Origin: Trueperaceae bacterium
GTDB lineage: Bacteria > Deinococcota > Deinococci > Deinococcales > Trueperaceae
Length of the DNA stretch: 64,000 nucleotides
Assembly (NCBI GenBank): GCA_965213925.1
Contig: OZ243927.1
Coordinates: 2,560,001 to 2,624,000 of the forward strand
Direction: 5' to 3'
The position numbers and the translations under genes are program-made. The notes beneath the pieces were generated by a model, which saw nothing but the letters and a program-made list of their open reading frames with translations, did no database searches and was not told the origin of the DNA. Each line of letters starts with the position of its first letter. Within the stretch, counting starts at the first letter, position 1. Below, in pieces: positions 41,012-58,959 of this stretch.

Positions 41012-42763
41012 TTATTCCGACGTCTCTACAAGTGGCGTATCTGCGCTTTGAGCGCGGTCTCTTTCAGCGTGGACTGCGCCCTGTTCTTCTTCTAAAAGGG
41101 TGTTCGGCAGCGAGAACCCGAAGCAGCTCCCCTCACCGGGCGTGCTCCTCACCCACACCTCGCCGCCGTGCAACTCGACCAAACGCTTGCTGAGCGCAAG
41201 CCCCAAGCCTGTACCGCCGTAGTTGCGGGCGAGCGAGCTGTCCACCTGTGAAAAGGGCTGAAAGAGCTTGGCGAGGTCGTCCTCGGCGATGCCGATGCCG
41301 TTGTCTTCGACCTCGACGCGCAGCCAGCCGCCGACCTCTTGCGCCCTCAGCTCGACGCGCCCGCCTAGCGGCGTGAATTTAACCGCGTTGGCGAGGTAGT
41401 TGTAAAGCACCTGTTTCACGCGCAGTGGATCGCAGGAGAAGGGTGCTAGGGAACCCAGCGCAGCGGCGAGTTGAATTCCCTTCGCCGCTGCGCTGGGGCG
41501 AACGCCCTCCAGAGCCTCTTGCAAAAGCGGCTCCATAGGGGTTTGGCGGCGCGTCAAGCTCACCCTGTCCGCCTCGATTTTGGAGAGGTCTAAGAGGTCG
41601 TTGATGAGCGAGAGCAGGTGCGACCCGGAGTCGTGGATGCTCTTGACCTGCTCTTGCTGCTTGTCATTAAGCGGGCCGAAAAGCTCGTCGGCGAGCAGTT
41701 GTGAAAAGCCTAAAACGGCGGTTAGGGGCGTGCGCAGCTCGTGCGACATGGTCGCCAGAAATTCGCTCTTGAGGCGGTTCGCTCGCTCCAACGCGGTGTT
41801 ATTCTCGCGCAGCTCGGCCTGCGAGCTGCGTAGCGCCGCCTCGGTGCGCTTGTAATCGCTCAGGTCGCGCACGGCTGCGACGCGCACGGTGCGCTCTTTG
41901 TAGGGGAGGGAGCGCTCGAGCAACTCCACGGGCAACAAGCTGCCGTCGCGCCTACGCCCGACGATTTCGGCGGGTTGGCTGCGCACCACGTCCGAGGCGG
42001 TGCGCTCTCGCACAAAGGCGACGGACTCGGCCCCGACGAACTCACCCACATGCTGCCCGATAAGCTCGTCCGGGCGGTAGCCGATCATCGCGCCGAGCCT
42101 AGCGTTCGCGTCCAAGATAAGGCCTTTTTCGTGCACCACGATCCCTTCGAAGCTCGCGTCCGCTAGGCGCTGAAAGCGCTCTTCGCTCTCCCGTAGCGAC
42201 GCCACGGTGCGCTCCAAGGTGCGCTGCTCGGACGCTAAACGTTTCAAGATGCTCGAGCGCACCGTGTAAATTAGGACCGAAAAGAGCGACGCGGCGAAGA
42301 GCGCGAAGCCGTAATGCAGCGTTCCCGCGGTCGCCGTTTCGGGCAACGTGACGACGACGAGCCCCCAACTCAGCAAGGTAACACCGACTAAGCCGAGCAG
42401 CCAGGGAAGGGAGAGGAGCAGGCTGCCTAGAGCGACGATGAGGAGGAGCACGTTGGTCGTCTGTTCAATTTCGGCGGTGAGATAGAGGTGGGTCAAGCAG
42501 TTGCCGAGCACGATGCCCACGAGGAGCGCCGCGCAAGGATGCGCCCGAGCAGCGCGAACCGGACGCGCGCCCCAACGCCGGTATAGCGTTATGAAGAGCG
42601 CGGACGAGACGAGGGCGACCGCCGCCATAATGAGCGCAGCCGCGCCTTCTAATACGAAGAGATGGCTCGGAGCGTAGAAGAGGTAAAGAAGTGCCAGGAC
42701 GAGGGCGACGGTGCGCAGCTGCCTCGCGACCTCGAGGTCGAACCTCTCTTGCAGCGCGTCCAC
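41012..42763 (-). CDS. Membrane PAS-domain sensor histidine kinase
   Basis: N-terminal TMs, PAS, MSHELRTPL H-box, NAVKFT, DNGIGI, GTGLGL. Confidence 0.94.
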   Translation of the reverse strand: MDALQERFDLEVARQLRTVALVLALLYLFYAPSHLFVLEGAAALIMAAVALVSSALFITLYRRWGARPVRAARAHPCAALLVGIVLGNCLTHLYLTAEIEQTTNVLLLIVALGSLLLSLPWLLGLVGVTLLSWGLVVVTLPETATAGTLHYGFALFAASLFSVLIYTVRSSILKRLASEQRTLERTVASLRESEERFQRLADASFEGIVVHEKGLILDANARLGAMIGYRPDELIGQHVGEFVGAESVAFVRERTASDVVRSQPAEIVGRRRDGSLLPVELLERSLPYKERTVRVAAVRDLSDYKRTEAALRSSQAELRENNTALERANRLKSEFLATMSHELRTPLTAVLGFSQLLADELFGPLNDKQQEQVKSIHDSGSHLLSLINDLLDLSKIEADRVSLTRRQTPMEPLLQEALEGVRPSAAAKGIQLAAALGSLAPFSCDPLRVKQVLYNYLANAVKFTPLGGRVELRAQEVGGWLRVEVEDNGIGIAEDDLAKLFQPFSQVDSSLARNYGGTGLGLALSKRLVELHGGEVWVRSTPGEGSCFGFSLPNTLLEEEQGAVHAERDRAQSADTPLVETSE

Positions 42764-42765
42764 GT

Positions 42766-43677
42766 TCAGGTCGCTCGGTGCGTGCGGTCCGCACCGTGAG
42801 CGCTACCGTAGCGCGCGCTGAGCGCGGCGGCGCGTTCGGCTAACGCGGGCAATTGCTCTCTATCTACACCTGTGCGGAAGCCCCTGACCTCCAAAAACGG
42901 CGCGACCTGTTCGGTAGGCAAGTTGCCCACGAGGTCGTCCGCTGCGAAGGGACAGCCGCCCACGCCCGCGAGCGCCCCTTCGAACCAGCGCAACCCGTAG
43001 GACAGAGCGACCTCCAAAGGTTCCTGCCAAGCGTCGGGGCGCGCGTGCAGGTGTAAGCCGAGCGTGGCGAGCGCGGCGACCTCTTGCGCGGCGCGCAGCA
43101 CCGCGTCTACGCGCGCCGCGTCCGCCGTGCCGACCGTGTCCGCAAGGGCGATGTCCGTTACGCCCATCTCCCTGAGCCGCGCCACCGCCGCCGCCGTGTC
43201 GTCCGGTTCCCAAGGCTCGCCGTACGGGTTGCCGAAGCCCATCGAGAGGTAGACGGTGAAGCCGACGCCGTGAGCTTGGGTCGTCTCGAGCATCGTCTCG
43301 GCGAGTCTCCACGAGTCCGCCAAGTCGCGCCCGGTGTTGCGCTTTTGAAAGGTCTCGTTCACCGAGAGCGGGTAGCCGACGCTGGTGACGCGCGCGTCTA
43401 CCGCTCGGGTCAGACCGCGCTCGTTGGCGACGATCCCCAAGAGGTCTACGTCCGATCCCAACGCGCTAAGGGACGCCAAGACGTCCTCCGTGTCCGCGAG
43501 CTGCGGCACGGCTTTCGGCGAGACGAACGAGCCCATGTCGAGCGAGCGGAAGCCCGCGGCTAAGAGCGCCTTGAGGTAACGCACCTTCTCTTCGGTCGGG
43601 ATGAACCCCGCTAAACCCTGCCAAGCGTCGCGCGGACACTCGACGTAACGCACTTCGTTCGTCCCTGACCCATTCAT
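42766..43677 (-). CDS. Hydroxymethylglutaryl-CoA lyase
   Basis: ECPRDAWQG, SFVSPKAVPQLAD, LADTVG, HLH, GGCPFA. Confidence 0.9.
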   Translation of the reverse strand: MNGSGTNEVRYVECPRDAWQGLAGFIPTEEKVRYLKALLAAGFRSLDMGSFVSPKAVPQLADTEDVLASLSALGSDVDLLGIVANERGLTRAVDARVTSVGYPLSVNETFQKRNTGRDLADSWRLAETMLETTQAHGVGFTVYLSMGFGNPYGEPWEPDDTAAAVARLREMGVTDIALADTVGTADAARVDAVLRAAQEVAALATLGLHLHARPDAWQEPLEVALSYGLRWFEGALAGVGGCPFAADDLVGNLPTEQVAPFLEVRGFRTGVDREQLPALAERAAALSARYGSAHGADRTHRAT

Positions 43678-43807
43678 CCTTGCAGTATAGCTAATATGAG
43701 AGGTCTCGGACGTAGGATCGGCTCAACGTGCACGTCCCGCTCTTGTGACGCAAAGGTTCTGTAGCCTCTTACGTCTTCTCCTCCTCGCACCCTTTATACT
43801 TGTCCCT

Positions 43808-45424
43808 GTGTTAGTCGCTCTGGAGCTTAAAGACTTCGCCATCGTAGACGAGTTGCGCTTAGAACTCTCGCCGGGGCTCAACGTCTTGACAGGGGAGACG
43901 GGCGCGGGTAAGTCCATCCTGATCGACGCACTGAGCCTCCTCATCGGCGGACGCGCCGACTCGTCGCTCGTGCGCACCGGGGCGCAGAGTGCGCTTATTC
44001 AAGGGCTTTTCGAGGACGCCCGCTTGGAGTCGGCGGCGCGGCGTCTGCAGCGTTCGGGGCGCTCTAGCGCCCGTGTGGACGGCGAACTCGTCACGGTGGG
44101 TGAACTCTCCGAGGTGGGCGGACACCTCATCGCGATCCACGGACAGCACGCTTCGCAGACGCTACTAGATAGCGCGGCGCAGCGTCAACTGTTAGACCGT
44201 TTGCTGCCGCCTAAAGCACAAGGCACGCTGCGCGACCTCCGCGCCACTTACCGCCGTTTTACGGAGGTCGAAAGAGAACTCGCCGCGCTTAAAACCGCCC
44301 TGCGCGAACGGGCGCAGCGGCTCGACATGCTCGAGTTTCAACTGCAAGAGATCGGCGCGGCAAACCTCCAAGCGGATGAAGAGGTGGCGCTCCGCGACCG
44401 TTTAGACAGCTTGCGCCACGCCGAGCGCATCGTGCAGGGTGCGAGCCGCGCGGTGCAGGGGCTCAGCGAGGGTGAAGCGAACGCCGTCGACCTCATTGCT
44501 TTAGCCCTGCGCGACCTGCAGGGCGCGGGGCGCTACAACAAGACGCTCGCCGACCTGGGCGGTGAGCTGAGCGACGCGCTCGCCAGCACCGAAGCGATCA
44601 GCGCCGAAGTGAGCAGTTTTTTGAGCGATTTCGAGATGGACGCGGGGCAGCTCGAGCGCTCCGAGCGCCGCCTCGCCCAGATCGAAGGGCTCAAGCTCAA
44701 ATACGGCGACAGCGTGGCGGCGGTGCTCGAGTACTACGAGCGTGCGAGCGAGGAGTTGCGGCGGCTCGAGCGGGCTGAAGGTGATATGAGCGACCTGGAG
44801 GCGGAGCGCGCGCGCTTACGGGAGGCGTTGCAAACACTAGCGGACGCCCTGAGCTGCGCGAGAAGAGACGCCGCCAAAACCCTCTCCGAGACCGTAACGC
44901 GCGAACTCCGTCCGCTCGGCATGGCGAACGCTCATTTTGTGGTCGGTTTAGAGCGCCGCGACGACGTCAACCAACACGGACAGGACAAAGTTACCTTTCT
45001 CTTTAGCGCTAACTTGGGCGAGCCGCCCGCGCCGCTGAGCGCGGTGGCGTCGGGGGGCGAACTATCGAGGCTCATGCTCAGCCTCAACGTCGCGACGGGC
45101 ACGGACGCCGCGACGCTCATCTTCGACGAGGTGGACGCTGGGCTCGGCGGTCAGACCGCCCGCTCGGTCGGCGCGCTTCTCAAACGCCTCGCCGCGCGCC
45201 ACCAGGTGCTCGTCGTGACGCACCTGCCGCAAGTTGCCGCCTTTGCCGACACGCAGTTCTTTGTAGAGAAGCTCGAGCGTTCGGGTCGCACGACCACGCG
45301 CATCTCGCGCTTAGACCCACAGGGGCGCGAAGCCGAACTCGCGCGGATGCTCTCGGGCGGGGCGACGGAAACGGCGCTCGCGCACGCGCGCGAACTGCTA
45401 CAAGAGGTCAAAGCGGTTGCTTAG
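43808..45424 (+). CDS. recN: DNA repair protein RecN
   Basis: TGETGAGKS, IHGQH, ASGGELSR, IFDEVDAG, VTHLPQVAA; GTG start after TATACT. Confidence 0.96.
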   Translation: MLVALELKDFAIVDELRLELSPGLNVLTGETGAGKSILIDALSLLIGGRADSSLVRTGAQSALIQGLFEDARLESAARRLQRSGRSSARVDGELVTVGELSEVGGHLIAIHGQHASQTLLDSAAQRQLLDRLLPPKAQGTLRDLRATYRRFTEVERELAALKTALRERAQRLDMLEFQLQEIGAANLQADEEVALRDRLDSLRHAERIVQGASRAVQGLSEGEANAVDLIALALRDLQGAGRYNKTLADLGGELSDALASTEAISAEVSSFLSDFEMDAGQLERSERRLAQIEGLKLKYGDSVAAVLEYYERASEELRRLERAEGDMSDLEAERARLREALQTLADALSCARRDAAKTLSETVTRELRPLGMANAHFVVGLERRDDVNQHGQDKVTFLFSANLGEPPAPLSAVASGGELSRLMLSLNVATGTDAATLIFDEVDAGLGGQTARSVGALLKRLAARHQVLVVTHLPQVAAFADTQFFVEKLERSGRTTTRISRLDPQGREAELARMLSGGATETALAHARELLQEVKAVA

Positions 45425-45433
45425 GCTGAGGCG

Positions 45434-46060
45434 ATGAACGTGCCAAGTTTACGCGAAGCTGAAGGGTTCCTCGCCGAAGCGCAGGCGCGCAACCCCGGTC
45501 CTTGGGTCGCGCATTCACGTAACGTGGGTAGAGCGGCGGAGGCGATCGCAACGTATTGTGTAGGGCTCGAGCCCGGCGAAGCCCTCGTCTTGGGCTACCT
45601 CCACGACATCGGACGGCGCGAGGGCGTGACCGCCAACCGGCATATGCTCGACGGCTACACCTTTCTCGCGGAGGAGGGTTACACGGACGCCGCGCAGATT
45701 TGCCTGACCCACTCCTTTCCCATATCCGATAACCGCGCCCTGGAAACGGCAATAGGCGCGTGGGACTGCTCGGAGGAGGAGCTGGCGTTCGTTGAGCGTT
45801 ACGTAGGGGACCTGACCTACACTGACTACGACAGGTTGCTCCAGCTCTGCGACTGCTTGGCGCTAGCCTCTGGTTGCTGCACGTTGGAAAAGCGCTTTGT
45901 CGATGTGACGCTGCGCTACGGCTTCAACGACTTTACGCTCCCCCGCTGGCGCGCGTACTTGAACCTTCAAACTTACTTCGAAGGGGAGATGTCGCGCCCG
46001 CTCTACAGCGTTCTCCCCGGCGTTATAGAAACGACCTTGGGCTTCTCCGAGGTGTCTTGA
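45434..46060 (+). CDS. HD-domain protein
   Basis: AHSRNV, LHDIGR, THSF, LQLCD. Confidence 0.85.
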   Translation: MNVPSLREAEGFLAEAQARNPGPWVAHSRNVGRAAEAIATYCVGLEPGEALVLGYLHDIGRREGVTANRHMLDGYTFLAEEGYTDAAQICLTHSFPISDNRALETAIGAWDCSEEELAFVERYVGDLTYTDYDRLLQLCDCLALASGCCTLEKRFVDVTLRYGFNDFTLPRWRAYLNLQTYFEGEMSRPLYSVLPGVIETTLGFSEVS

Positions 46061-46424
46061 AGCAACAGCGCGCGCAAAGTCGTGCAGAACAACACTTCTC
46101 TGCTCACGCAAGCTTCTACAACGCTAAAGACATCGTCCCTAAATGTGCGTACCAGTCGGTATTCTCCCAAGTAGGAGTGCAGTAAATGGGCTAGCATCTG
46201 CTAAATTATTCACGAACTAGAAAGTTGTGAAACTTTTCTTTATTGAGTGAACAAAGAAGGGCGCGAACGGTTGGGAGAATCCTTTGCAGGACACCGTTCG
46301 CACCTGTTGTTAGGGTAGCGGATAGGCTCTTACAAAATTCTGACTCGAGCCCTTCGCGCTATCTTTCGCCGGGTACTCCCGACGGTTCTTCTTTTCGGGC
46401 TCCTCGGTCTAGGCGTCTTATAAA

Positions 46425-46605
46425 AACATTCACGCTCAAAAAGCTCGAGCTGATGTCCGCTTTTGTCGTTTCCACGCAACTAGGCACGCCGCTCGCCGCC
46501 TCAGCCACAACCTTCTATTTCAGCGAGTCGCTTTCGCTGACCAAGCTCGGCTTCGCTAAGGTCACATTGGTCGGCGTCACCGGGCCGACGCTGAGCGGAG
46601 GAAGC
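46425..46605 (+). pseudogene. Degenerate remnant of a small multidrug resistance (SMR) gene
   Basis: LKKLELMSAF...LGT...YFSESLSLTKLGF..VTLVGVTG resembles SMR helices 3-4; 5' half not recognisable. Confidence 0.4.
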
Positions 46606-46651
46606 TGCCGGCCGCACGCTTCGTATCTACGCTGCGCCTAAACCGGGTGCA

Positions 46652-47305
46652 CTACTCCGAACGTAGCACCGTCCAGAGCGCCTCGTCGGTGAAGTCGCGA
46701 ATGACGAGCGCCGCGCCCGACTTCTTGAGGTCTTCGGGCTTTTGCGTGGTGGCCATACCGACCGTGAGGATGCCCGCGCTCGAGGCGGAGCGAACCCCCG
46801 CCAGCGAATCCTCGAAGACGAGCGCCTGCTCAGCGGAGACGCCTAGCTCCTCTAAGCTCTTCTCATACGGAAGCGGGTCGGGTTTGCCGTGCTCCAACTC
46901 CTCCGCTAAGACGAGCACCGGGAACGTCTCGCCTAGACCCGCCGCTTGCAGCATAAAGTTCACATTTTCACGCGGCGCACTCGTCACGAGCGCCCGCTTC
47001 ATCTCCTTGTTATCCATCCAAGAGAGCAGGTCGATTAAGCCCTGCATGGGCGTCAAGTCCTCAGCGAAGTCGCGGAACTTCGCCTCTTTCTCGTTCATAA
47101 TATCGGCGCGTTCCTCGTCAGAGAGGTCGGGGAAGAGGTCGCGTAAGATGTCCATGTTGGGGCGACCGCTCATCTCGGCGTTATAAAACTCACGGTCGAT
47201 CTCTTTGTCTCGCGCGCTCAACACCTCGTGATAGGCGCGAAAATGAATATCATCTGTGTCGATAAGCGTGCCGTCCATGTCGAAAATGATTGCCTCAAAC
47301 GTCAT
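46652..47305 (-). CDS. HAD-family phosphatase
   Basis: FDMDGTL, VTSA, KPDP, FEDS. Confidence 0.93.
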   Translation of the reverse strand: MTFEAIIFDMDGTLIDTDDIHFRAYHEVLSARDKEIDREFYNAEMSGRPNMDILRDLFPDLSDEERADIMNEKEAKFRDFAEDLTPMQGLIDLLSWMDNKEMKRALVTSAPRENVNFMLQAAGLGETFPVLVLAEELEHGKPDPLPYEKSLEELGVSAEQALVFEDSLAGVRSASSAGILTVGMATTQKPEDLKKSGAALVIRDFTDEALWTVLRSE

Positions 47306-47483
47306 GGCTCAGTCTATAGGAAAGTGCGCCCCTTCACATCCCGCTCCAGCGCACAAAGCGGCGTGATAAAATAATTTAGTGATCTTACGATTAAAGCGCA
47401 ATCAATGTAAAATGCCTTTATAACTAAATTAAAAAAGTGTTTTGTTTTAAAATTATTAAGTTGATTCATAAAGGAGGTTAGGA

Positions 47484-48812
47484 ATGAGTTACAAAAACTT
47501 GACGGAACGCCGCGCTCAGGCGGTCGCCTCTGCCGTTTATTCCGTCCATCCCTTTTACCCGCAAAGAGCCGAAGGGTCTTACGTATGGGACAGCGAGGGC
47601 AAGAAGTATCTCGACTGGTCCACGGGCATCGCGGTCATGAACATAGGACATTCGCACCCGAAAGTTCTGGAGGCGGTGCGCAGGCAGAGCGAGACCTTTC
47701 AGCACCTCTGTTTTGCGGTGGGGATGCACGAAACCTACATCCAGCTCTGCGAAAAGCTGGGCGAAATCGCGCCGGGGTCGTCGCCCAAAAAGACTTTTTT
47801 GATCAATTCGGGCGCGGAAGCGGTGGAGAACGCGGTGAAGATCGCCCGCGTCGCCACCGGACGTCAAGGGGTGGTCGCCTTTACCCACGCCTTTCATGGG
47901 CGCACGCACATGGCGCTCTCCTTGACGGGCAAGGCGAACCCTTACAAGGCGGGCTTCGCGCCCCGCGCCGCCGAAGTCTACCGCGCCCAGTACCCGTACT
48001 GCTACCGCTGCCCCTATACCGGACCCAGTGATAAAGAGGACGGAAGGTGCTGCCAGAGCGACCTCACGCGGCTGCGTGAGATGGTCAAGTACACGGTCGG
48101 TGAGGGCGAGGTGGCGGCGTTTCTGCTCGAGCCCGTTGCGGGCGAAGGCGGTTTCATCCCCGCGCCCCCCGAGTTCTTGCGCGCCCTACGCGACTACTGC
48201 GACGAAATCGGCGCACTGTGGATCGACGACGAGATTCAGTCGGGTATCGGGCGCACGGGCGCGTGGTGGGCGGTCGATCATTATAACTTAGAGCCCGACC
48301 TCGTCACGAGCGCCAAGGCGCTCTCGTCGGGCTTTCCCGTTTCGGCGGTGGTCGGCAAGGCGGAGGTGATGGACCAGGTTCAGCCCGGTCAGATCGGCTC
48401 GACCTTCGGCGGCAACCCGACCGCGTGCGCCGCCGCTTTAGCCACCTTGGAGGTCATCGAAGAAGAGGGACTCTTAGCGCGTGCGCAGGAGATCGGCGCA
48501 GTGGCGAAAGAGCGCCTCGGCGCGCTACAAAAGGAGCATCCGCAGATCGGCGACGTGCGCGGTGTGGGGGCAATGATCGGGCTCGAGTTCGTTTTCGAGG
48601 ACGGCGTAACGCCCCACCCCGCCGCCGTCGAAGCGGTCGTCACGCACGCTAGAGACCACGGGCTCATCCTCTTGCCGACGGGAACCTACAGCAACGTCAT
48701 CCGGTTACTTCCGCCCATCAACATGGGCGATGAAGAGTTGGACGAGGGCTTGAGCAAACTGGAAACGGCGGTGAAGCGTGCGCTCGAGCTTGCCGTCGTC
48801 GGTATGGATTGA
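47484..48812 (+). CDS. gabT: 4-aminobutyrate aminotransferase-like (class III)
   Basis: NSGAEAVENAVK, FHGRT, EPVAGEGG, DEIQSG, TSAK, STFGGNP. Confidence 0.88.
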   Translation: MSYKNLTERRAQAVASAVYSVHPFYPQRAEGSYVWDSEGKKYLDWSTGIAVMNIGHSHPKVLEAVRRQSETFQHLCFAVGMHETYIQLCEKLGEIAPGSSPKKTFLINSGAEAVENAVKIARVATGRQGVVAFTHAFHGRTHMALSLTGKANPYKAGFAPRAAEVYRAQYPYCYRCPYTGPSDKEDGRCCQSDLTRLREMVKYTVGEGEVAAFLLEPVAGEGGFIPAPPEFLRALRDYCDEIGALWIDDEIQSGIGRTGAWWAVDHYNLEPDLVTSAKALSSGFPVSAVVGKAEVMDQVQPGQIGSTFGGNPTACAAALATLEVIEEEGLLARAQEIGAVAKERLGALQKEHPQIGDVRGVGAMIGLEFVFEDGVTPHPAAVEAVVTHARDHGLILLPTGTYSNVIRLLPPINMGDEELDEGLSKLETAVKRALELAVVGMD

Positions 48813-48835
48813 CGTAGATTCCGGTGAGCCATACT

Positions 48836-48871
48836 GTTTCGGGGCGATTCCTACAAGAATCGCCCCGAAAC
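48836..48871. terminator. Hairpin between convergent gabT and pdxS
   Basis: GTTTCGGGGCGATTC / GAATCGCCCCGAAAC perfect 15-bp IR. Confidence 0.8.
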
Positions 48872-48903
48872 TAGTGTATCTTTCTCGCGGAGTTACTCGA
48901 CCT

Positions 48904-49794
48904 TTACCAGCCTCTCGTCGCCAAAAGCTCCTCTTCTTTCAAGTCAGGGATGTTGATCCCGACCATCGCCTCGCCTAAGTCGCGGGAAACTTCCGCCAAG
49001 ATGTCGGGGTTATCGTAGTGCGTCACCGCTTTGACGATGGCTTGACCGCGCTTCACGGGGTCGCCCGACTTGAAAATGCCCGAGCCGACGAACACGCCGT
49101 CCACGCCGAGCTGCATCATGAGCGCGGCGTCGGCGGGCGTCGCGACGCCCCCGGCGGCGAAATTCACGACGGGTAGCGTCCCGTTTTCGTGGATGTACAC
49201 GACCAACTCGTAAGGCGCTCTGAGGTCCCTCGCGGTGGTCATCAGCTCTTCGCGCGGCAGGTTCTGAATGCGGCGAATCTCGCCCATGATGGTGCGGGCG
49301 TGGCGCACCGCCTCGACGACGTTGCCCGTGCCCGCCTCGCCTTTCGTGCGGATCATCGACGCGCCCTCCCCGATGCGGCGAAGCGCTTCGCCCAAGTCTT
49401 TCGCGCCGCACACGAAGGGCACGGTAAAGGCGTGCTTATCGATGTGAAAGCTTTCGTCAGCGGGCGTGAGCACCTCGGACTCGTCGATGAAGTCCGCGCC
49501 CAAGGCCTGTAAAATCTGCGCTTCGACGAAGTGACCGATGCGCGCTTTGACCATCACCGGGATCGAGACCGCGCCTAAAATTCCCTCGATCATGCTCGGG
49601 TCCGACATTCGCGCGACGCCGCCCTGAGCGCGAATGTCGGCGGGCACGCGCTCTAAAGCCATCACTGCCGTCGCGCCTGCGTCCTCGGCGATGCGCGCTT
49701 GTTCGGGGTCGATGACGTCCATGATGACGCCGCCCTTAAACATCTCCGCGAAGCCGGTTTTGATCCTGAGTGAGCCGATGGTGGTTTCTGGCAT
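48904..49794 (-). CDS. pdxS: Pyridoxal 5'-phosphate synthase lyase subunit
   Basis: [41 protein letters not shown]. Confidence 0.97.
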
Positions 49795-49924
49795 GGTAAT
49801 CCTCCGTGCAAAATAGCGTAAAACGTGACCTCGAGGGGTCAAGTATGGCGCTCAGTATACGCTGTAACCCCCCGTTTCACACGTCGCTTGGTGGTCAATG
49901 CTTGATCTAGTTACTTGGCTTAGT

Positions 49925-50565
49925 TCGCGTAGGGACGGCTGGAGAAGAAATCAGTAGACGTCCCTTACCACTGCCGTTTGGACCTGCTTGGGAAAAGTGC
50001 CATTCGGTCATCCGTGTAGGAAAACTCAATATCGGCGCGAAAACGCAGCGGCGCACGAAAGTAGAGGGCAGCGCCTGGTGAAAACGGCGAAGCGCCTTCA
50101 ATTGCCGGGGGGAGTCAAGAGGTTCGCCGTCCCCGCCACCGCTGCCCCTAACGCCACTTTAGAGGCTGACTGGACTCCTCAATCGTAGCCTTGTTCACGC
50201 TTACTAGTTTTTATGAGCGCTCGAGGAAGCCGACAAACTTTGACTTTCGTAGTTATTGGAGGATTTTGATCGACCGCTGCTCTACTTGCGCAATCGTAGC
50301 GAGGACTCTACCGGGCGAAGATGGAGTCGTAAGACTGGCTTAAACCAGGTGATATAGCCTTTCCATGTGGGCCAAAAGAAGTCCGCGAGGAGAGAGTTGG
50401 ATGCGTTTCATCACGTGTCTCCTCGCGGTGTTCCGCTGGCTGTCCCCCGGCGGGGTCGGACGGATGCTCGGTCCGTCTTGCTCTTATGATAAAGGACCGT
50501 GCGTACAAACGTGAAGAGGTGACTGCACCAGTCCTCCCCCACCACCTGTACTAGCAGGGGGTGGA
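49925..50565 (+). ncRNA. Candidate large structured non-coding RNA, family not identified
   Basis: No credible ORF; more than 10 helices by eye including long-range pairs and a pseudoknot; G-U pairs favour the + strand. Confidence 0.6.
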
Positions 50566-50567
50566 CG

Positions 50568-51824
50568 CTAAAAGCTCGCGAGCCCGCGTTCGCGCGCCCA
50601 CACGACGGCTTCGGCGCGCGAATGCACCCCGATCTTCTCATAAATCTGCGTGATGTAGTTGCGCACGGTCTGTTTGGCGATGCCTAAGTCCTGCGCGATG
50701 GTCGTGTTGTCCAACCCCTGAGCGAGCCGCTCCAACACTTCGCGTTCCCGCTTGGTGAGCCCCGAGACCGCGGCGGTATCGACCCCTTCTGAACGCAGCA
50801 GGGCGAGCTTCTCCATGACCGAGCGCGAAAGCCACGCGGTATCGGACATGACCTCTTCGATGGCCTGCACGAGTTGACGCTCGGTGCGCTGGCGCTCGGT
50901 CACGTCATAAAACATGAGGAGCACGTCGGCGGCGAACTCGGTGGTGCCGGGTTTGCGGGTAGCGGGTTTCGTCGCGTGAGGTCCTATGTCGGGCTCAACA
51001 GCGTCGGACTTAGTGGCGGCGGGCTCGGCGCGGCGCTCCGCGTCGCTCAGGACCTCGGCGGAAGCTAACACGTCGCGGGTGTCGCCGGTTTTGGTGCGAA
51101 TCTGCAAGGCGAGTTCGCGAAAGCCGTGACCGCTCGCTAGGTGCGCGGCAAAGGAAGCCCGGTCCGCTTCGGACTGCCACAGCCCGAGTTCAGCGCCGCT
51201 CCGCTTGAGGACCTCCTCTTCCCGGAAGCCCGTCAGCGTCAGGAAGCTCTTGTTGACCTCGATGATGCGCCGCCCCTGCAGCATACACGCGGGCACGGGC
51301 GCAACGTGGAACATCGTGCTGAGGCGCACCTCGACCTCTTTTTGCGCGGTGATGTCAGCGAAGGTCAGGATGCCGCAGGTGTCGCCGTCTAGCTCTAAAG
51401 GTTTCGCCGAGATGAGCACCGTTTTCTCGAGCCCCGACTTCGTCTTCACACCCGCTTCGACCTTGGAGGCTTGCTGCCAGGTGCGCGGCGCGTTGAGGAG
51501 CGCCTCGCGCTGACGCGGGTCGCTGAAGAGGTCCAGTTGCGGCAGCGCTTCGCCGCGCACCTCACGCTGAGCGTAACCCGTCAACTCCGCAAAGCCGCTA
51601 TTCACCATCATGATGCGCTCGTCCATGAGCCGCACGATAATGGCGGGGGCGGGGTTCACGTCGAAAACGGCGTAGAAGCGCTCCTCCGCCTCCTGCCGTT
51701 CACGCTCCGCCCTGTCTTTTTGCGCCTCGGCCCTAGCCTTGTCGTCCCTCAGCTCGTCTTTAGCCTTTTCCTTAGCGCCTCTATCTTTAATATCGCTCAC
51801 GTTGTCCCCAACTGCTGTCCCCAA
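50568..51824 (-). CDS. PAS-PAS-LuxR HTH transcriptional regulator (start uncertain)
   Basis: Two PAS domains (VNSGFAELTGY, VNKSFLTLTGF); LTKREREVL...TVRNYITQIYEKIGVHSR. Confidence 0.92.
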   Translation of the reverse strand: MGTAVGDNVSDIKDRGAKEKAKDELRDDKARAEAQKDRAERERQEAEERFYAVFDVNPAPAIIVRLMDERIMMVNSGFAELTGYAQREVRGEALPQLDLFSDPRQREALLNAPRTWQQASKVEAGVKTKSGLEKTVLISAKPLELDGDTCGILTFADITAQKEVEVRLSTMFHVAPVPACMLQGRRIIEVNKSFLTLTGFREEEVLKRSGAELGLWQSEADRASFAAHLASGHGFRELALQIRTKTGDTRDVLASAEVLSDAERRAEPAATKSDAVEPDIGPHATKPATRKPGTTEFAADVLLMFYDVTERQRTERQLVQAIEEVMSDTAWLSRSVMEKLALLRSEGVDTAAVSGLTKREREVLERLAQGLDNTTIAQDLGIAKQTVRNYITQIYEKIGVHSRAEAVVWARERGLASF

Positions 51825-52009
51825 CTTCTGCTGGCTGCTGCCTCCGGCGGATTTGCCTTAGTTAATACGTCTATTCTACATCATCTTGCCGCGCAGGCGT
51901 TCCGGGTCGTTCGCGCTGCAAGGATAAGGAGGTAGGAATGGGGGGTGAAAACGCCCTTTCTCCTCATTCCCTCGCCGAGCACACAGCCGCGGACGCGCTA
52001 TACTCAGCT

Positions 52010-53572
52010 ATGTCTTCCGCTGTCGCGATGCAAAAAATCGTCAAACGCTTTCCGCTCGTCCTCGCCAACGACCACGTCACCCTGGAGGTCGCCCGGGGCG
52101 AAGTCCACGCGCTCATCGGCGAAAACGGCGCGGGCAAGTCCACCCTGATGAAGATTCTATACGGCTTGCAGCAGCCCGACGCGGGCAAGATCGTCGTGGA
52201 CGGCAAAGAGGTCGCCATCGAGAGCGCCAAAGACGCGATCGCTTTGGGCATCGGCATGGTGCATCAGCACTTTATGCTGGTCGAGCCGCTTACCGTGGCG
52301 GAAAACTTGGTGCTGGGCTCCGAGCCTACGAGCGGACTCTCGCTCAATTACCGCGCCGCCAGGGAGCGCACGGCGGACCTTATCGAACGTTTCGGCTTCG
52401 ACATCAGCCCGGACACCAAGATCGAAGACTTAGCGGTGGGCTTTCAGCAGCAGGTCGAGATTCTTAAAACGCTCTACCGCGACGCCCACATCCTCATTAT
52501 GGACGAGCCCACCGCCGTACTGACGCCGCAAGAGACGAGAGGGCTCTTTAAGTTCGTGCGCGAGTTCGCCGAGAGCGGCAACGCGGTGATTTTCATCTCG
52601 CACAAGCTCGACGAAGTCATGGAAATCTGCGACCGCATGAGCGTGATGCGCGACGGCAAGATGATAGGCACGGTGGAGCGGGAGAATACAAACCAGCGGC
52701 AGCTCGCCAACATGATGGTCGGGCGCGAGGTCATCATGAGCGTGGAGAAAGCGCCCGCTGAGCCTCAAGAGGTGAAGCTCGAGCTGCAAGGGGTCACCCT
52801 GCGCCACCCCGACAAGCACAAACCGCTCGTCGACGACGTCTCCTTTAAGCTCCGTGCGGGTGAAATTTTAGGCGTTGCGGGCATCGAAGGCAACGGTCAA
52901 TCTGAACTTGTCGAATGCATCGCAGGTCTGCGCGACGTGGACCACGGGCGCATCCTCTTAGCCGACCAAGACGTCTCGACTAGGAGTGCCAAAGAGGTGC
53001 GTCAAGCCGGGCTCTCGCACATCCCCGAAGACCGCCTCGAGCGCGGGTTAGTCGGCGAATTCAGCACCGCGATGAACAGCATTTTGGGCGACTATTACCA
53101 TCAGCCCTACAGCAACCCGCTCGGTCTCATCGACGAGCGCAAAGTCGAGGCGCACGCCGCGAAGCTCGTTCAGGAGTACGACGTGCGCCCCGCCTCGACC
53201 AGCGTCATGGCGGCGAGCTACTCGGGCGGCAACGCGCAAAAGCTCATCGTGGCGCGGGAGCTGGAGCGTCAACCCGAGGTGCTTATCGCCTCGCAGCCCA
53301 CCAGAGGCGTGGACATCGGTGCGATCGAGTTTATCCACAAGCAGATCGTCGGCGCGCGAGATGACGGCTTAGCCGTTCTGCTCGTCTCGGCTGACCTCAA
53401 CGAAGTGATGAGCCTTTCCGACCGAATTTTGGTGCTTTTCGAGGGCAAAGTCATGGGCGAACTCACGTCGGAAGAGGCGAACGCGGAGCGGCTGGGACTC
53501 CTCATGTCGGGGTCTAAGGTGCAAGGTGATGAGGTCGAGGAGAGTTTCGAGGCGGCGTCGGAGCGGGTTTAG
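52010..53572 (+). CDS. ABC ATP-binding protein, nucleoside/BMP (CUT2) type; no adjacent permease
   Basis: [39 protein letters not shown]. Confidence 0.93.
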
Positions 53573-53681
53573 CGTTCCGCGGCTTGCTCTACGCCGTGGG
53601 TTTGGAGCACCGCGCTGTCCAACTTGGTGAGCACGCCTTTGCTGCTGTACGCACCGACATCAATGCCTAAGAGAAGCGCCA

Positions 53682-55316
53682 TCAGCCGAGCGCCTGGAGA
53701 TGAACTGCGCCGCAAAGGTGAACGTTCACGCCGAGCGCATTAAAGGCTGCCGCTTTCGCCGCCAATGCGCGGTTCGCGTCCCCTTCCGAGGGGGCGTAAG
53801 CGACTTGGATGTGGTTCGCCTTGTGACGGGCCATCATCTGGTCGCGCGAGACGCCGTGCAGCAGCGCGTGCATGATGGGCCACTGCGGCGTCGTCGCTTC
53901 ACGGCGGCGCGTCGTCTCCTCGTCCGGCAACATCACCGCGCTGCCGCGTCCTAAGTCAACGTGTAACGTCCCTTTAGCGAGATAGACGCGGCTCCAGACG
54001 ATCTCGCCCGGCTTGCTCACGCCTGAGAGCGTGCCGCCGCCTAGCGGAAAATACATCGGCGGTTGGCGGTAGCTCGTCGCGTCCGCGTAGCCCCGCGCTA
54101 AGTGCGACGCCGGGAGCGCCCCTGAAATTTGCAGCGTCCATATGAAGGCGTCGAGGTCTTCACCCGTATAGTGCTCGCCCCACCGGAGGTCGTGCAGCGT
54201 CGTCGCCGGGTCGAAGCCGAGGGCACGCCAGACGCGGTTCGTGACGAGCGCGTCCACCGCCGCCCCTTCGTCCACCTCGTTGAAATGCGGCAACGCCGCG
54301 CCCGGATAGAGTTCCTCGCCGCTCTTCGCGTGACGTACAGGTGGACGCTCCACGTTGTTGAGCAGTCCTTCGGTGAGGTCGGACGCGGGCGCGGCGTCTT
54401 TAAGCCCTTGCTGGTACTGGATGCCGATGGCGTCGCAGCCAAACTCATGCGCGGTGCGCGTGGCGGCGATGTACATTTTGAGTTGCTCTAGGACCTGCGC
54501 CTCGGTCAGCTCAGCCTCCGGGTCGTCACCTTTGTCATCGCCGTAGTCGAAGGACATACCCCGCTCGGTGAGCCATCCCAGCGCGCTCTTCGCTTCACCC
54601 TCCTCAACCTCTCGCATCGCCGCGACGAGGGCACTCTGCGAGAGTCGCTCCTTGTAGATACCCAAAGGGTTCAGGTATTCGTCGTCGATGATCGCGTTGT
54701 ACATCCCCATACAGCCCTCGTCGAACACGCCGAGAATCGCCATGTTGTGCCTGAGGTCGTCCGCGAGGTCTTGACCTATCTGCTGCGCTTCGGAGGAGAG
54801 GCTCGAGGGATTCAAAGCGCAAACGTGACTGGTATCGTGCTCCACGCTACCCTCACGGAGCCACGCCCGCAGCCCGTCCAAGAAGAAGTCGTCCGTGAAG
54901 TCTTTGCTCCAGAGGGTGCTGTAGGCAACGCCCGCTTTGGTGAGGCTGCCGTTGAGGTTCAGAAGCCCCACCAGACCCGGCCACTGACCGCTCCAGTTGG
55001 CGACGGTGAGGATCGGACCCCGGTGTCGCCGCAAACCTGCCAGTACGTGGTGGCTGTACTGCCAGACCGCCTCCGCCACGACGACGGGCACGTCTAGCGG
55101 GACGGTGTTGAATACATTCATCCCCATCCGCTGAGAGTCGATAAAGCCGTGCCCCTCAGCTTCGCTGAAGGGGTGTGCCCGTTTAAGTGTTGCGTCTTCG
55201 CGCCCAAACGCTTCCGTGAGACGCCGCTCCATATCGGCTTGCGCGGCCCAGCAGGTTTGATTGGCAGACAGGCGAAGATCGCCGCTGGCAACGAGATAGA
55301 CTTCTTTTGACATCAT
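53682..55316 (-). CDS. L-fucose isomerase-like protein
   Basis: [49 protein letters not shown]. Confidence 0.75.
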
Positions 55317-55344
55317 GCCTCCTTGGTCGTTTGAGCGTTTACTT

Positions 55345-55865
55345 CAGCAGTGAGGGCGCGCGCCAGCCGCTACAGGTGCCGCCACTGACGGCTGGCAGCG
55401 CCGCCCACAGCCGCGTGTCGGTAGGTAAAGTCTCGTCTCAGGCGAAAGCTCGGCTTTGACGCTCTTGCAAGCGTCGCGCTCCTTCATCCGTAGAGAAGTG
55501 CGTGTCGCTCATCTCTCCGACGAGGTCAAGCGTGCCGGAACTGCGGCTTGAGTCGGTAGCGGTGCAAAAGGTGTCCTTCTCGAGCACCTTACCAAGCGGA
55601 CCTCCCGCTGACCCTTCCGGTCCAACGTGAGCGGTACACGCGCCCGTCGAGACGCCGGAGAAGCGGGCGTCGGTCACGAGCGCCACCCTATAAAGGCAGG
55701 TGCTTGAGCGCAGAGGCGATCTGTAGGTTTCCTCCATCCCGGTTCCGGCAGGTCCGACGCTGACGAGGACCATCACGCCGTCCACTTCTACAGCACCCTC
55801 TTTAATAGCGCGAAGCGCGGCGCGTTCGCGGGTGAAGGCTCGAGCCGGCCCCTCGTGGTGGTACG
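55345..55865 (-). pseudogene. C-terminal remnant of YjhG/YagF-type (IlvD family) sugar-acid dehydratase
   Basis: GPAGTGMEETY, TDARFSGVSTGAC, GGPLGK, DTRLWAAL with frameshifts and an internal stop; N-terminus missing. Confidence 0.8.
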
Positions 55866-55892
55866 TCAGTTACTTTGTCCACCACATAAGTA

Positions 55893-55920
55893 AGAGGTGC
55901 CGACACACTTCGGCACCTCT
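55893..55920 (-). terminator. Hairpin downstream of trxA
   Basis: AGAGGTGCCGA / TCGGCACCTCT 11-bp IR. Confidence 0.65.
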
Positions 55921-56016
55921 ATAAGCTTTGTTTTGCTCTAGCTAGAGCTTTCGCCACCTAAACTGCTCGCTTGGAGTTTTAGGCTGACCCATGTCTCTTT
56001 TAAGTGGGGTTAGGGT

Positions 56017-56352
56017 TTAGTTGACACCTGCCCCTACATACTGACTAATCCGCGACTCGTACGCGCCTTTAGGCTGCGCCCCGATCATCGTCTCGACGGG
56101 CTCGCCATCTTTGAACAAGATGACGGTGGGAATGCTCATCACGCGGTAGCTCATCGCGGTCTGCTGGTGGTCGTCCACGTTGAGCTTGCCCACTTTAACC
56201 TTGCCTTCGTAGTCGCCAGCGAGTTCTTCAATGACAGGTCCGACCATGCGGCAAGGACCGCACCAAGGAGCCCAGAAGTCCACGAGGACTAAGCCCTCTT
56301 GGGTTTCGTCTTTGAAGTTGCTGTCGGTAAATTCGATGGTGTTTTCTGCCAT
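56017..56352 (-). CDS. trxA: Thioredoxin
   Basis: DFWAPWCGPC, SIPT. Confidence 0.97.
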   Translation of the reverse strand: MAENTIEFTDSNFKDETQEGLVLVDFWAPWCGPCRMVGPVIEELAGDYEGKVKVGKLNVDDHQQTAMSYRVMSIPTVILFKDGEPVETMIGAQPKGAYESRISQYVGAGVN

Positions 56353-56451
56353 GTTTCCTCCTAACTCAATGTAGATGAGGTGGCTGAGAAAGTATGTCTT
56401 TTAGACAGCAATGAGTGGTGAGTTGAAAGCAGCGAGTCGAAAGATTTCCGC

Positions 56452-57645
56452 TCACCGCTCACCGCCCGTCCAGCTTGACCGGATTGCTTTTAACTCGTTG
56501 CTGTTCTCCCAGATATACAGCTTCGACGCGTCGTCCCCTCTCGTAAACCGGGGCGGCGCGAGCGACAGGGCGCGGTAGCCTCCCTTGACAGCGGAGCGCA
56601 CGAGCGCGAGATCGCTTGCTCTATCGCCGTGTAGCGCCCGCGCCGCCGCGACCTCTCGCTCGACGGATAAGTCGGGCGAAGACCCTTTAGAGTCCGTGCC
56701 GAACGCCACCTCGACGCCATACTTCATATAGAGTTCCCAGGGAAAGCGTCCGCATTCTAAAGCGGTATTTGAGCGCGGACAGTGCACGACCACGCAGCCC
56801 GCGCGCTGCACCTCGCGCACGTCTTCCTCAGACACGTGAACCACGTGAATGAGCGTCGGTTGCGCGTCCAAAACGCCTAGCGCTCTAAGGTATTGCACGG
56901 GCGTCAAACCGGAGGGCTGCCAGTTGGGAAGCCACCGGCGCATCATCTCGCTGAGCGGACCTATTCCGTCCTTATGCAGCGCTATCTCGCCCTCGCTTTC
57001 GGCGACGTGAATCTGCATAGGTAGGTTAGAGCGCCGCGCCAAGGCTGCGAGCTTCTGTAAGAGGGGCGCACTGACCGTGTGGGGCGTGTGGGGTGAGAGA
57101 CCGAGCTTGACGCCACCAGGATGTTCCCAAGCGCGGAACTTGCGGAGCTTTTCGACTGTTTCAGTGAAGATTTTGTCTGCGTCTTCAGGCTTAGGACCGA
57201 AAACTTCCCAGTAGGCGACCCCTTGTAAGTCGGGAGAGGTGAGCAGAAGCTCCATGACCGCTTCGCTCGTGACAATGTCACCCATCGTTGTTACGCCTCT
57301 CGAGCGCATCTCCCCCAGCCCTGCTCTTGCTGCCTCTAAACCTTTTGCGCGGCGTTTCGGCATATAGGCGATAACTTTAGTTATGAAAGCCTCATAACTG
57401 CCCGGTGTAAAAGGCATGTAGGAGAGGTCTAGGTGGGTGTGGGCGTTGACTAAAGGGGGCGAGATGGCGAAGCCTTTGTCCTCGACTTCTACATCCGGAA
57501 AGTTCTGCTTGGCGACCTCCAGGTCGTCCACCGCGACGATCTGCGCCTCGTCACCTTCGCCCTGGACGACCACCGCGCCGCTCGCTCTCGGTGTTCCCAT
57601 ACCGTTATAGACAACGTCCGCTGCTAAGATTTGGCGCTGTAACAT
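56452..57645 (-). CDS. Amidohydrolase/deaminase (possibly aminodeoxyfutalosine deaminase-like)
   Basis: NAHTHLD, SPHTPHTV, IHVAES, HCPRSN, GTDS. Confidence 0.85.
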   Translation of the reverse strand: MLQRQILAADVVYNGMGTPRASGAVVVQGEGDEAQIVAVDDLEVAKQNFPDVEVEDKGFAISPPLVNAHTHLDLSYMPFTPGSYEAFITKVIAYMPKRRAKGLEAARAGLGEMRSRGVTTMGDIVTSEAVMELLLTSPDLQGVAYWEVFGPKPEDADKIFTETVEKLRKFRAWEHPGGVKLGLSPHTPHTVSAPLLQKLAALARRSNLPMQIHVAESEGEIALHKDGIGPLSEMMRRWLPNWQPSGLTPVQYLRALGVLDAQPTLIHVVHVSEEDVREVQRAGCVVVHCPRSNTALECGRFPWELYMKYGVEVAFGTDSKGSSPDLSVEREVAAARALHGDRASDLALVRSAVKGGYRALSLAPPRFTRGDDASKLYIWENSNELKAIRSSWTGGER

Positions 57646-57706
57646 GCTCTATCATACGGGCACAGTGCTGAGAGGATTGAAAGCAGAGCGTTTTTAGCAG
57701 TTGGAG

Positions 57707-58830
57707 GAGACACCCCTAAAAGTCGGTTGAGTACTTGAGAGGTGTAAGGAGCACTTTAAGCCAGGGTCTGCTAGGACGACTTGTGAAACGCTGCCAAGAG
57801 GACTTGCCGCGAATGAGGTGATGATGCCATCTATAGCGAGCTTCTTTGGACCAATCGAGGGCGCGGTGAAAAGCTTTAACGACGCGCTTTTTACTTCTTG
57901 ACCAGAGCGCGCTATAGAGAGTTTCTGAAGCGTTGTTGGTCAAGGGCATCGCCTTGTGCTGCCAACAGCGTTCAAGCTGTGTCCAGGCGTTGAGTAAAGG
58001 CTCGAGCTGGGTTGCGCCGTAGCGAGCGGTGAGGACGCCTAGAAACCACCTAGCATCGTTGAGGTTGGTGCAGGCGTAGAGAAAGCGCAAGTCCGCAGCA
58101 ACACGTTCGCGTTCCTCGCGAGGGAACTGCTTGACGACCTCTCTGATGACATGGAACCAACATCTTCCATGCGGCTCGTCAGAGAAGTATTCACACGCCG
58201 CTGCAATGCTCTTACACCCATCACTGATCATCAGCTTAGGGTTGTGCTCAGCGATCAACTCACGAATGACTTCTTCATCACGGCTTTCGCACAAGGCGTA
58301 ACCCACAATGGCTTGTGACTTGAGCTCAGTAAGCGTGTACGTCCACCACTCGCCTAGTCTGAACTCGTCCACGCTCGCCGCGTTGAGCGTCGTAGGTTTG
58401 ACTTGTCGCTCTTCCAACCGTTCCGCCCTCAAAGCGCGTGTGCCTTGCCAAGAGGCACGGGTCTCGGGGCGAAGTGGATAGCCCAAGTGCTCGGCTATCT
58501 CAGCCGCGCAGCTTTCGTCCACTTGATGCGCGTCCAATACGGCAAAGATGCCTTCTACCTTTTGGCTATACCACTTGTGACGTGTTACGCCCGCTGGATA
58601 GACGCAGCCTAAGCTACCTTTGCACTTTCTGCAGCGCACGCGCAATACCTTCTCTTCGCGTACACCGTTGACATCGCGGTGTTTCCTGACTCGGTAGCCA
58701 CCACCCTCGGGCTTCCTTATCTTGCACTTAGGGCAACGTCTATCCAGTAAACTCGCTCGGGGGTAAGTTTGGGCTTCCACAACCCATTCTTACCCCTCCT
58801 TGCTACTCAACCGACTTTTCGTGCAACCTC
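57707..58830 (-). mobile_element. Complete 1124-bp IS, IS256/Mutator-like superfamily
   Basis: 27-bp imperfect TIRs GAG-N8-AAAAGTCGGTTGAGTA; 8-bp TSD AGTTGGAG (57699-57706, 58831-58838). Confidence 0.9.
57716..58780 (-). CDS. DDE transposase with N-terminal Zn ribbon
   Basis: CPKC...CRKC; SVDE, ISDG, RCWFH (CxxH), TNNASE. Confidence 0.85.
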   Translation of the reverse strand: MEAQTYPRASLLDRRCPKCKIRKPEGGGYRVRKHRDVNGVREEKVLRVRCRKCKGSLGCVYPAGVTRHKWYSQKVEGIFAVLDAHQVDESCAAEIAEHLGYPLRPETRASWQGTRALRAERLEERQVKPTTLNAASVDEFRLGEWWTYTLTELKSQAIVGYALCESRDEEVIRELIAEHNPKLMISDGCKSIAAACEYFSDEPHGRCWFHVIREVVKQFPREERERVAADLRFLYACTNLNDARWFLGVLTARYGATQLEPLLNAWTQLERCWQHKAMPLTNNASETLYSALWSRSKKRVVKAFHRALDWSKEARYRWHHHLIRGKSSWQRFTSRPSRPWLKVLLTPLKYSTDF

Positions 58831-58845
58831 AGTTGGAGAACACGC

Positions 58846-58875
58846 TTGACTTCATCTCACCTAGCGCTGTACGCT
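58846..58875 (+). promoter_or_regulatory. tRNA promoter
   Basis: TTGACT-N18-TACGCT, 12 nt before the tRNA. Confidence 0.6.
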
Positions 58876-58887
58876 GAATGTCCCTTC

Positions 58888-58959
58888 GGGCGGTTAGCTC
58901 AGTGGGAGAGCACTCGCTTCACACGCGAGGGGTCACTGGTTCAAATCCAGTACCGCCCA
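58888..58959 (+). tRNA. tRNA-Val (anticodon CAC), CCA not encoded
   Basis: Acceptor GGGCGGT / ACCGCCC, D-arm TAGCTCAGTGGGAGAGC, anticodon arm CTCGC-TTCACAC-GCGAG, T-loop GGTTCAAATCC. Confidence 0.96.

Follow-up and report, generated by a model that had tools for sequence, protein, structure and literature searches.

Organization of the locus

The window analysed here, a stretch of 64,000 nucleotides from a Trueperaceae bacterium (contig OZ243927.1), contains a gene for the pyridoxal phosphate (PLP) synthase subunit, pdxS, and a gene for a PAS-PAS-LuxR regulator, both on the minus strand and separated by a gap of 773 nt (49795-50567). The minus-strand order is LuxR, gap, pdxS. A previous, sequence-only reading of this DNA had identified the two flanking genes correctly and had tentatively assigned most of the gap between them to one structured, multi-domain RNA of about 640 nt, transcribed from the plus strand and folded by long-range helices. 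The analysis described below suggests instead that the gap probably contains two separate small conserved RNA elements on the minus strand. The first, block A, would be a small RNA (sRNA) or an element of the 3'-untranslated region (3'-UTR) of the LuxR gene, and the second, block B, a structured terminal hairpin. The features of the locus were as follows.

48904-49794, minus strand: pdxS, the PLP synthase subunit gene (Pfam SOR_SNZ, E 4e-106, and the sequence and its translation)
49795-50052, no strand assigned: pdxS-proximal part of the gap, including a hairpin (49931-49965) and a possible pdxS promoter region; identity with the related locus L001 at background
50053-50064, minus strand: U-rich tail of block B (window, CUACUUUCGUGC; L001, CUAUUUUUGAUC); homology ends here
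50065-50148, minus strand: block B, a long imperfect hairpin made up of three helical segments (24 bp in total); all 24 pairs are kept in both the window and L001
50149-50371, no strand assigned: spacer between the blocks, with neither a structure nor a conservation signal
50372-50428, minus strand: terminator-like hairpin of block A, with an invariant 11-bp GC-rich stem, CCGCGAGGAGA/UCUCCUCGCGG, at 50383-50428
50414-50480, minus strand: core of block A, with hairpins P1 and P2; 62 of 67 alignment columns identical, against a neutral level of 62-63%
50486-50515, minus strand: promoter-like site TTCACG-18-TATCAT (9 of 12 matches; 1 site found where 0.2 was expected)
50568-51800, minus strand: PAS-PAS-LuxR regulator gene with a GerE helix-turn-helix (HTH) domain (Pfam GerE, 7.5e-21, and PAS domains)

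Conservation in a related locus

A search of the genome collection with the LuxR protein gave nine loci, only one of which, L001, carried an ortholog. L001 is a 13-kb locus from a Trueperaceae metagenome-assembled genome, and all of the comparative results rest on two sequences, the window and L001. The L001 ortholog (6022-7194) matched the window protein at 84% over 377 aligned residues and at 72% in the best tblastn segment. Synteny was confined to a divergent ABC-F gene (90% amino acid identity), LuxR and blocks A and B; it was broken on both sides, on the far side directly after block B. Coding DNA of the two loci was 79-84% identical. The neutral level was taken from the 4-fold degenerate sites of the LuxR and ABC-F genes, where the identity was 63.0% (162 sites) and 62.4% (229 sites), respectively.

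When the gap was aligned with MAFFT and the identity was followed in a sliding window of 30 columns, two conserved blocks of about 108 nt and about 84-95 nt emerged, with background identity elsewhere. The order, A then B, was the same in both loci, while the terminator of block A and the hairpin of block B were 227 nt apart in the window but 95 nt apart in L001, and about 140 bases of the window (roughly 50235-50375) had no aligned counterpart. The stretch just upstream of block B was identical in 30 of 56 columns, which is under the neutral level, and homology with L001 ended at about 50050. Between the LuxR stop codon and block A (50483-50567), the identity was about 60-65%, with two invariant motifs, CTAGTAC and GTGCAG..ACCTCTT. 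A hairpin at 50539-50564 lacked a U-run and its register was not kept in L001.

No pdxS gene was found in the 13-kb L001 locus, where the blocks nevertheless follow LuxR, so that they appear to travel with LuxR and not with pdxS. About 100 nt past block B, L001 carried an insertion sequence (IS) of 1125 bp (7703-8827) that encodes a DDE_Tnp_1 transposase (348 aa) and has inverted repeats of 15 nt. Its ends were flanked by a 9-bp direct duplication (7694-7702 and 8828-8836), and the insertion looks recent. Past the IS there was a convergent open reading frame (ORF) of a phosphotransferase family, near the 3' end of which the IS had inserted. On the near side of the IS, the frame of this convergent gene reached a stop at about 7610, approximately 20 nt past block B, which places block B where the transcription unit ends. 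The position of the blocks at the end of a unit that faces a convergent gene argues against a pdxS leader or riboswitch.

Structure of block A

The core of block A differed from L001 by three substitutions and a 2-nt indel, an identity above that of the coding DNA. Since its conservation is far above the neutral level, block A is very likely functional. Hairpin P1 (50459-50477, GACGGA/UCCGUC) contained a single substitution, which converts an A-U pair to a G-U pair on the minus strand and would give an A-C mismatch on the plus strand. In the P2 region (50433-50453), which has a GGGACAG loop, the hairpin CCGCTGG/CCGGCGG was invariant. At 50439-50447, the P2 loop region contained the 9-mer GGGGACAGC (minus sense), which recurred at 51814-51822, within the ribosome-binding region of LuxR and 14-22 nt before its start codon; at this place L001 had a G-rich stretch that was similar but not identical. 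The recurrence could reflect a shared binding partner or could be due to chance.

The core was joined to the terminator stem by a linker of 4 nt. Although the stem was invariant, the apical part of the hairpin was identical in only 12 of 24 columns, its inner stem being retained through three compensatory pairs. A U-rich tail (50372-50382) came after the hairpin on the minus strand; it reads ACUUCUUUUGG in the window and AUUUUUUUGUGG in L001. Neither sequence had a U-run after the stem on the plus strand. With its stem and adjoining U-run, the element looks like an intrinsic terminator, which would place block A on the minus strand. An alternative hairpin of 4 bp, GCGG-loop-CCGC, that takes up the first 4 nt of the terminator arm could be drawn in both loci.

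The promoter-like site was the only one in the gap and ended 7 nt before the first conserved base, so placed that transcription may start at about 50479, where the conservation of block A begins.

Structure of block B

The conservation of block B was of a different kind. Its sequence identity, 56 of 89 columns, was at the neutral level, and yet every one of its pairs was kept: 11 were invariant, 10 were changed on one side and three were compensatory. When the pairing pattern was slid along the alignment as a control, only 41-54% of the cells were paired. All 10 one-sided changes produced G-U pairs on the minus strand (four cells in the window and six in L001) and A-C mismatches on the plus strand, a split with a two-sided binomial probability of approximately 0.002. 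The sequence-only reading had held that G-U pairs consistently favour the plus strand; in block B, the hairpin that offers the most comparative data, the opposite was found. The pattern in block A was mixed, inasmuch as the plus-strand U-G pairs in CCGCTGG/CCGGCGG are real and the P1 substitution creates a minus-strand G-U pair.

The folding energies pointed in the same direction. The RNAalifold consensus of block B was -40.0 kcal/mol in the minus sense and -28.9 kcal/mol in the plus sense, in which the inner 12-bp helix was lost. The L001 hairpin had an energy of -44.2 kcal/mol (z -3.2) in the LuxR sense as compared to -34.4 kcal/mol (z -0.75 to -1.0) in the antisense orientation, while in the window both strands folded about equally well (-44.9 and -44.8). 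The U-runs, the G-U pattern and the folding energy of the L001 hairpin thus indicate the minus strand for block B.

The apical region of block B, about 31-36 nt, contained an invariant motif, CCCCCCGGCA (50103-50112), and a conserved CCUCUUGA. It includes an invariant run of six C and a CCUC-containing stretch, which are probably unpaired. The sequence GCCGGGGG in block A is complementary to CCCCCGGC in block B, and both are invariant. Prediction of a duplex between A and B over their whole length gave unrealistic full-length duplexes.

Folding of the entire gap

Every one of the complementary segments listed by the sequence-only reading was present in the DNA at the position given for it, and the question was which of them exceed chance. 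Five perfect 8-mer complements lay within 60 nt of each other, where 0.66 was expected, a count reached by three of 500 dinucleotide shuffles, and there were three local 9-mer complements (0.13 expected, reached by two of 500 shuffles). For distant 8-mer complements, in contrast, the count of five was reached by 92 of 500 shuffles (2.86 expected), and no distant 9-mer complements were found in the gap. Since the local complements go beyond the shuffles and the distant ones do not, the local hairpins can be considered real and the long-range helices are at the level of chance. The impression of dense complementarity was thus justified for the local stems and not for the long-range helices. The 3' partners of the latter, at 50243, 50274 and 50359, moreover, lie in the stretch that has no aligned counterpart in L001, and the partner proposed for a pseudoknot, at 50173, is in a part of the alignment whose identity does not exceed the neutral level. 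Conserved structure accounted for about 200 of the 640 nt.

The minimum free energy (MFE) of the whole 641 nt gave z-scores of -3.25 (plus) and -2.55 (minus), as estimated from only 20 shuffles per strand. This signal stemmed from two sub-regions, blocks A and B. Block A (50375-50482) gave z-scores of -3.5 (plus) and -3.3 (minus), or about -3.3 to -3.7 overall, and the hairpin of block B (50056-50150) gave -3.1 and -2.75, or about -2.4 to -3.1 overall (100-200 shuffles). The folding of the remaining parts did not go beyond that of the shuffles, with z-scores of +1.2 and +0.6 for the spacer at 50235-50374 and +1.4 and +1.1 for 49843-50055. A comparison of folding energy with shuffled sequence had been proposed as a check on the 640-nt RNA; the region as a whole did fall below the shuffles on both strands, but the signal was confined to the two blocks.

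Coding potential and flanking genes

The statement that the gap has no credible ORF was confirmed. The nine gap ORFs that were checked had a GC content of 0.51-0.69 at the third codon position (GC3) and 0.44-0.61 at the second (GC2), as compared to 0.77-0.82 and 0.36-0.45, respectively, in six neighbouring genes. None of the nine had a GGAGG-type site within 20 nt upstream, and a Pfam scan of six of them gave no matches. No frame is left intact by the indels within the blocks, which amount to 2 nt in block A and to 4+1 nt in block B. A plus-strand frame across block A was open in both the window and L001, with about 20 residues common to both; it differs after the 2-nt indel, although the nucleotides remain conserved. 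The peptide of this shared frame had no words in common with any of 5.8 billion database proteins, and tblastx between the window and L001 matched block A in a number of different frame combinations that scored alike. The GC content of the gap was 0.49-0.60, as compared to 0.59-0.69 in the flanking genes.

The likely start of the LuxR gene is GTG 51800, which gives a protein of 410 aa, and its stop codon is at 50568-50570. A database protein of 410 aa, P0001, was identical to the window LuxR, and four relatives found in the protein database search (P0002 and P0004-P0006) were 72-78% identical, with others at 46-54%. A second ATPase of the ABC-F type, at about 16100-17600 of the window, shared approximately 40% protein identity with the one adjacent to LuxR (tblastx).

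The likely start of pdxS is ATG 49794, with GGAGGA (49800-49805) 5 nt before it; TTG 49842, the mechanical start of the ORF, is less likely. Close to pdxS, a near-palindrome, TGACCTCGAGGGGTCA (49826-49841), shares bases with a minus-strand -35-like TTGACC and could be an operator for this gene. A pdxT gene was not adjacent to pdxS. The neighbour was a convergent class-III aminotransferase gene (47484-48812), followed by a gene for a HAD-family hydrolase (46652-47305), and a stretch of low GC content between these two (47300-47600) had values of 0.36-0.42, as compared to about 0.6-0.67 around it.

Known families and database searches

A scan of the entire window against Rfam 15 at the gathering threshold, a check that the sequence-only reading had named, returned a transfer RNA (tRNA) at 58888-58959 and nothing else, hence no relevant family in the gap. 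Permissive scans of 49750-50650 in the window and 7190-7790 in L001 gave two matches each, with E-values of 1.9-6.7, far below gathering; these were to microRNA and RAGATH hairpin models and differed between the window and L001. There was no match to the covariance models of OLE, ROOL or GOLLD in the window gap or in L001, even at E-values up to 10. The idea that the gap encodes structured RNA that has not been described was sound to the extent that conserved, non-coding structure without an Rfam 15 match is present; the single plus-strand molecule of about 640 nt with multiple domains was not sustained.

Neither block belongs to a repeat family, as far as the 64-kb window and L001 are concerned, in each of which A and B were single copy by pattern search (up to three mismatches), blastn and covariance models. 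Neither was present in L002-L009, the loci of distant PAS or HTH proteins. A 17-bit match of the block B model in L007 lacked the motif and looks like chance. The whole gap had no blastn match in the plasmid collection. A survey of the literature on small RNAs of Truepera or Deinococcus did not uncover such elements, which is no proof of their absence in print.

The tRNA (70.7 bits), in the stretch 58888-59027, was followed by a hairpin and a CTCTTTTTGC tail, so that terminators consisting of a hairpin and a U-run, with tails like those of A and B, do occur in this genome. Terminator-like sites were not enriched in 40001-60000, where 17 were found and 20.4 expected.

Discussion

Several observations made directly on the two sequences bear on the interpretation: 1) conservation is concentrated in two blocks, 2) the pairs of block B are kept while its sequence drifts, 3) the two strands are not equivalent, 4) a coding signal is absent, 5) each block is single copy and 6) the blocks are syntenic with LuxR. 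From these we infer that the blocks are transcribed, that the transcripts have the ends described here and that they may act in trans. A minus-strand RNA would be initiated at the LuxR promoter, at the promoter-like site (50486-50515), or at both of these, and its last 106 nt or so would constitute block A (about 50372-50480), which would thus be either a small RNA with its own promoter or the 3' end of the LuxR transcript. The 65-nt 5' part, almost invariant and weakly structured, would be the working part and might act by pairing with a target or by binding a protein, while the GC-rich hairpin and its U-run would end the transcript. Transcripts that read through would end at block B, which would serve as the final, back-up terminator or as a 3'-end stabiliser of the LuxR-A-B unit. 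Stability or termination would account for the retention of the block B stem, and the loop, which is rich in C and contains CCUC, might also pair with purine-rich ribosome-binding sites.

A number of results weigh against this interpretation. In block A, P2 forms better on the plus strand, with eight pairs including two U-G, where the minus strand has a C-A mismatch, and the consensus energy slightly favours the plus strand (-47.2 compared to -44.05 on the minus strand). Without the terminator, the core had z-scores of -2.2 in the window and +0.08 in L001 and is therefore not unusually stable, which suggests that it is conserved mainly at the level of sequence. The promoter-like site reached 9 of 12 matches in the window only; in L001 the -10-like hexamer, TACTAT, was retained and no promoter was called by the scan. 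For block B, the scan found no promoter in either sequence, and its tail in the window is only moderately U-rich (5 U in the first 9 nt) and weaker than that of block A. A simple terminator scan called neither hairpin; that of block A was missed because the scan permits loops of 3-8 nt only and the apical part is 24 nt. For both blocks, the covariation was reached by 69 of 500 shuffles, and with only two sequences to compare, covariation has little statistical power. In the duplex test between A and B, the window duplex was equalled or surpassed by 213 of 300 shuffles and the L001 duplex by 19 of 300.

The alternative that survives best, although we regard it as rather unlikely, is that the gap holds a plain 3'-UTR and tandem LuxR terminators without a separate RNA function, the conservation of block A being that of an element for protein binding, for stability or at the DNA level. 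Each block is closed by a hairpin and a U-rich tail, block B lies at the end of the conserved unit, and no terminator was found between the LuxR stop codon and block A, the hairpin at 50539-50564 being the one without a U-run. However, terminators have no need for 65 nt at about 95% identity, nor for a 10-nt motif that stays invariant at the apex of an 84-nt hairpin, and the conservation of a -10-like hexamer just before the core is likewise not accounted for. An element acting at the level of DNA would not explain block B either, since a palindrome would not restrict G-U to one strand.

It was also considered that A and B form one regulated module or a mid-size RNA on the minus strand, in which the core senses a signal and the terminator gates read-through into block B. 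The core of block A is conserved over its full length and not in a short seed, it abuts the terminator with a linker of only 4 nt, and the GCGG-loop-CCGC alternative hairpin exists in both genomes. In addition, block B has no recognisable promoter, the part upstream of it is at or below neutral identity, the order of the two blocks is preserved in both loci, and the complementary segments GCCGGGGG and CCCCCGGC are invariant. The alternative hairpin, however, comprises 4 bp only, no strong antiterminator was seen, the core is not unusually structured, and there is no Rfam match. The distance between the blocks varies from 227 to 95 nt, chance alone would fairly often give an 8-nt GC complement, and the duplex test did not reach significance in the window. 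On this evidence, a coupled module seems unlikely. The more specific proposal, that the core of block A is a new ligand-bound or protein-bound sensor that controls its own terminator and hence the RNA of block B, and that belongs to no described family, is more doubtful still.

The blocks would be very improbable as a cis-regulatory leader of pdxS, such as a riboswitch or attenuator that responds to vitamin B6. They do lie upstream of pdxS on the same strand, with a conserved core and then a terminator. Against this, the blocks follow LuxR in L001, with no pdxS within 13 kb and with a next gene that is convergent even if the IS is disregarded; the terminators are about 580 and 260 nt from the pdxS start, a -35-like TTGACC is found close to pdxS, and no Rfam aptamer was matched.

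We give hardly any credence to a single large plus-strand RNA, about 640 nt long and comparable in size to OLE, ROOL or GOLLD. The z-score of -3.25 for the whole region on the plus strand (20 shuffles), the existence of all of the listed complementary segments, the lack of an ORF or an Rfam match and the better pairing of P2 on the plus strand are consistent with it. The distant complements, however, are at chance, with partners (50243, 50274 and 50359) in sequence for which L001 has no aligned counterpart; past about 50050 no homology remains, and z is positive outside both blocks. The 10 one-sided changes of block B become A-C on the plus strand, whose consensus is without the inner 12-bp helix, and this strand has neither a promoter-like site nor a U-run after any of its hairpins.

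A small protein gene, a decayed gene, a repeat or the relic of a mobile element has next to no probability: the frame shared across block A in both genomes, with its 20 or so common residues, and the IS that adjoins block B in L001 are offset by the 2-nt indel, which disrupts the frame although the nucleotides beyond it are still conserved, by the lack of a Shine-Dalgarno-type site, a GC3 of 0.51-0.69 and no Pfam or database relatives, by a single copy in the window and nine loci (pattern, blastn and covariance model) without a plasmid match, and by an IS that lies about 100 nt past block B with its own inverted repeats and target duplication.

The interpretation of the gap as two small minus-strand elements can be compared with known systems. 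Trans-acting sRNAs that end in a terminator include some derived from 3'-UTRs, such as CpxQ, DapZ and SroC of enterobacteria. Block A resembles them in its length of about 100 nt, its location immediately after a protein gene of the same orientation, a possible internal promoter, and a conserved 5' part that is followed by a GC-rich hairpin and a U-run. It differs in that it is conserved over 65 nt and not in a short seed, and it is not related to a named sRNA in Rfam. The sRNAs RoxS and RsaE of Firmicutes pair with Shine-Dalgarno regions through C-rich loops. The run of six C and the CCUC stretch in the apical region of block B recall this type, but where those sRNAs have several short C-rich loops, block B has a single long 24-bp hairpin, and it has no Rfam match.

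A long gap free of ORFs with several hairpins is reminiscent of OLE, ROOL and GOLLD, whereas the conserved structure here consists of two separate modules, on the other strand, without conserved long-range helices. Among the non-coding RNAs under riboswitch control are EutX and Rli55, which are controlled by a B12 riboswitch. A conserved core, a terminator and a second structured RNA with a hairpin and tail, with no intervening ORF, are comparable, but the core of block A matches no known aptamer in Rfam, the alternative pairing is limited to 4 bp and the core is not strongly structured.

Conclusions

What had been a candidate for a giant ornate RNA is replaced by two smaller conserved elements of familiar kinds. 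They are non-coding, absent from Rfam and found in a poorly studied lineage, the Trueperaceae of the Deinococcota. If the core of block A were a sensor that controls block B, the pair would represent a new class of regulatory RNA; if it has no such role, they would be two ordinary small RNA or terminator elements. In the two loci compared, the blocks stay linked to the PAS-LuxR regulator while the genes beyond them change.

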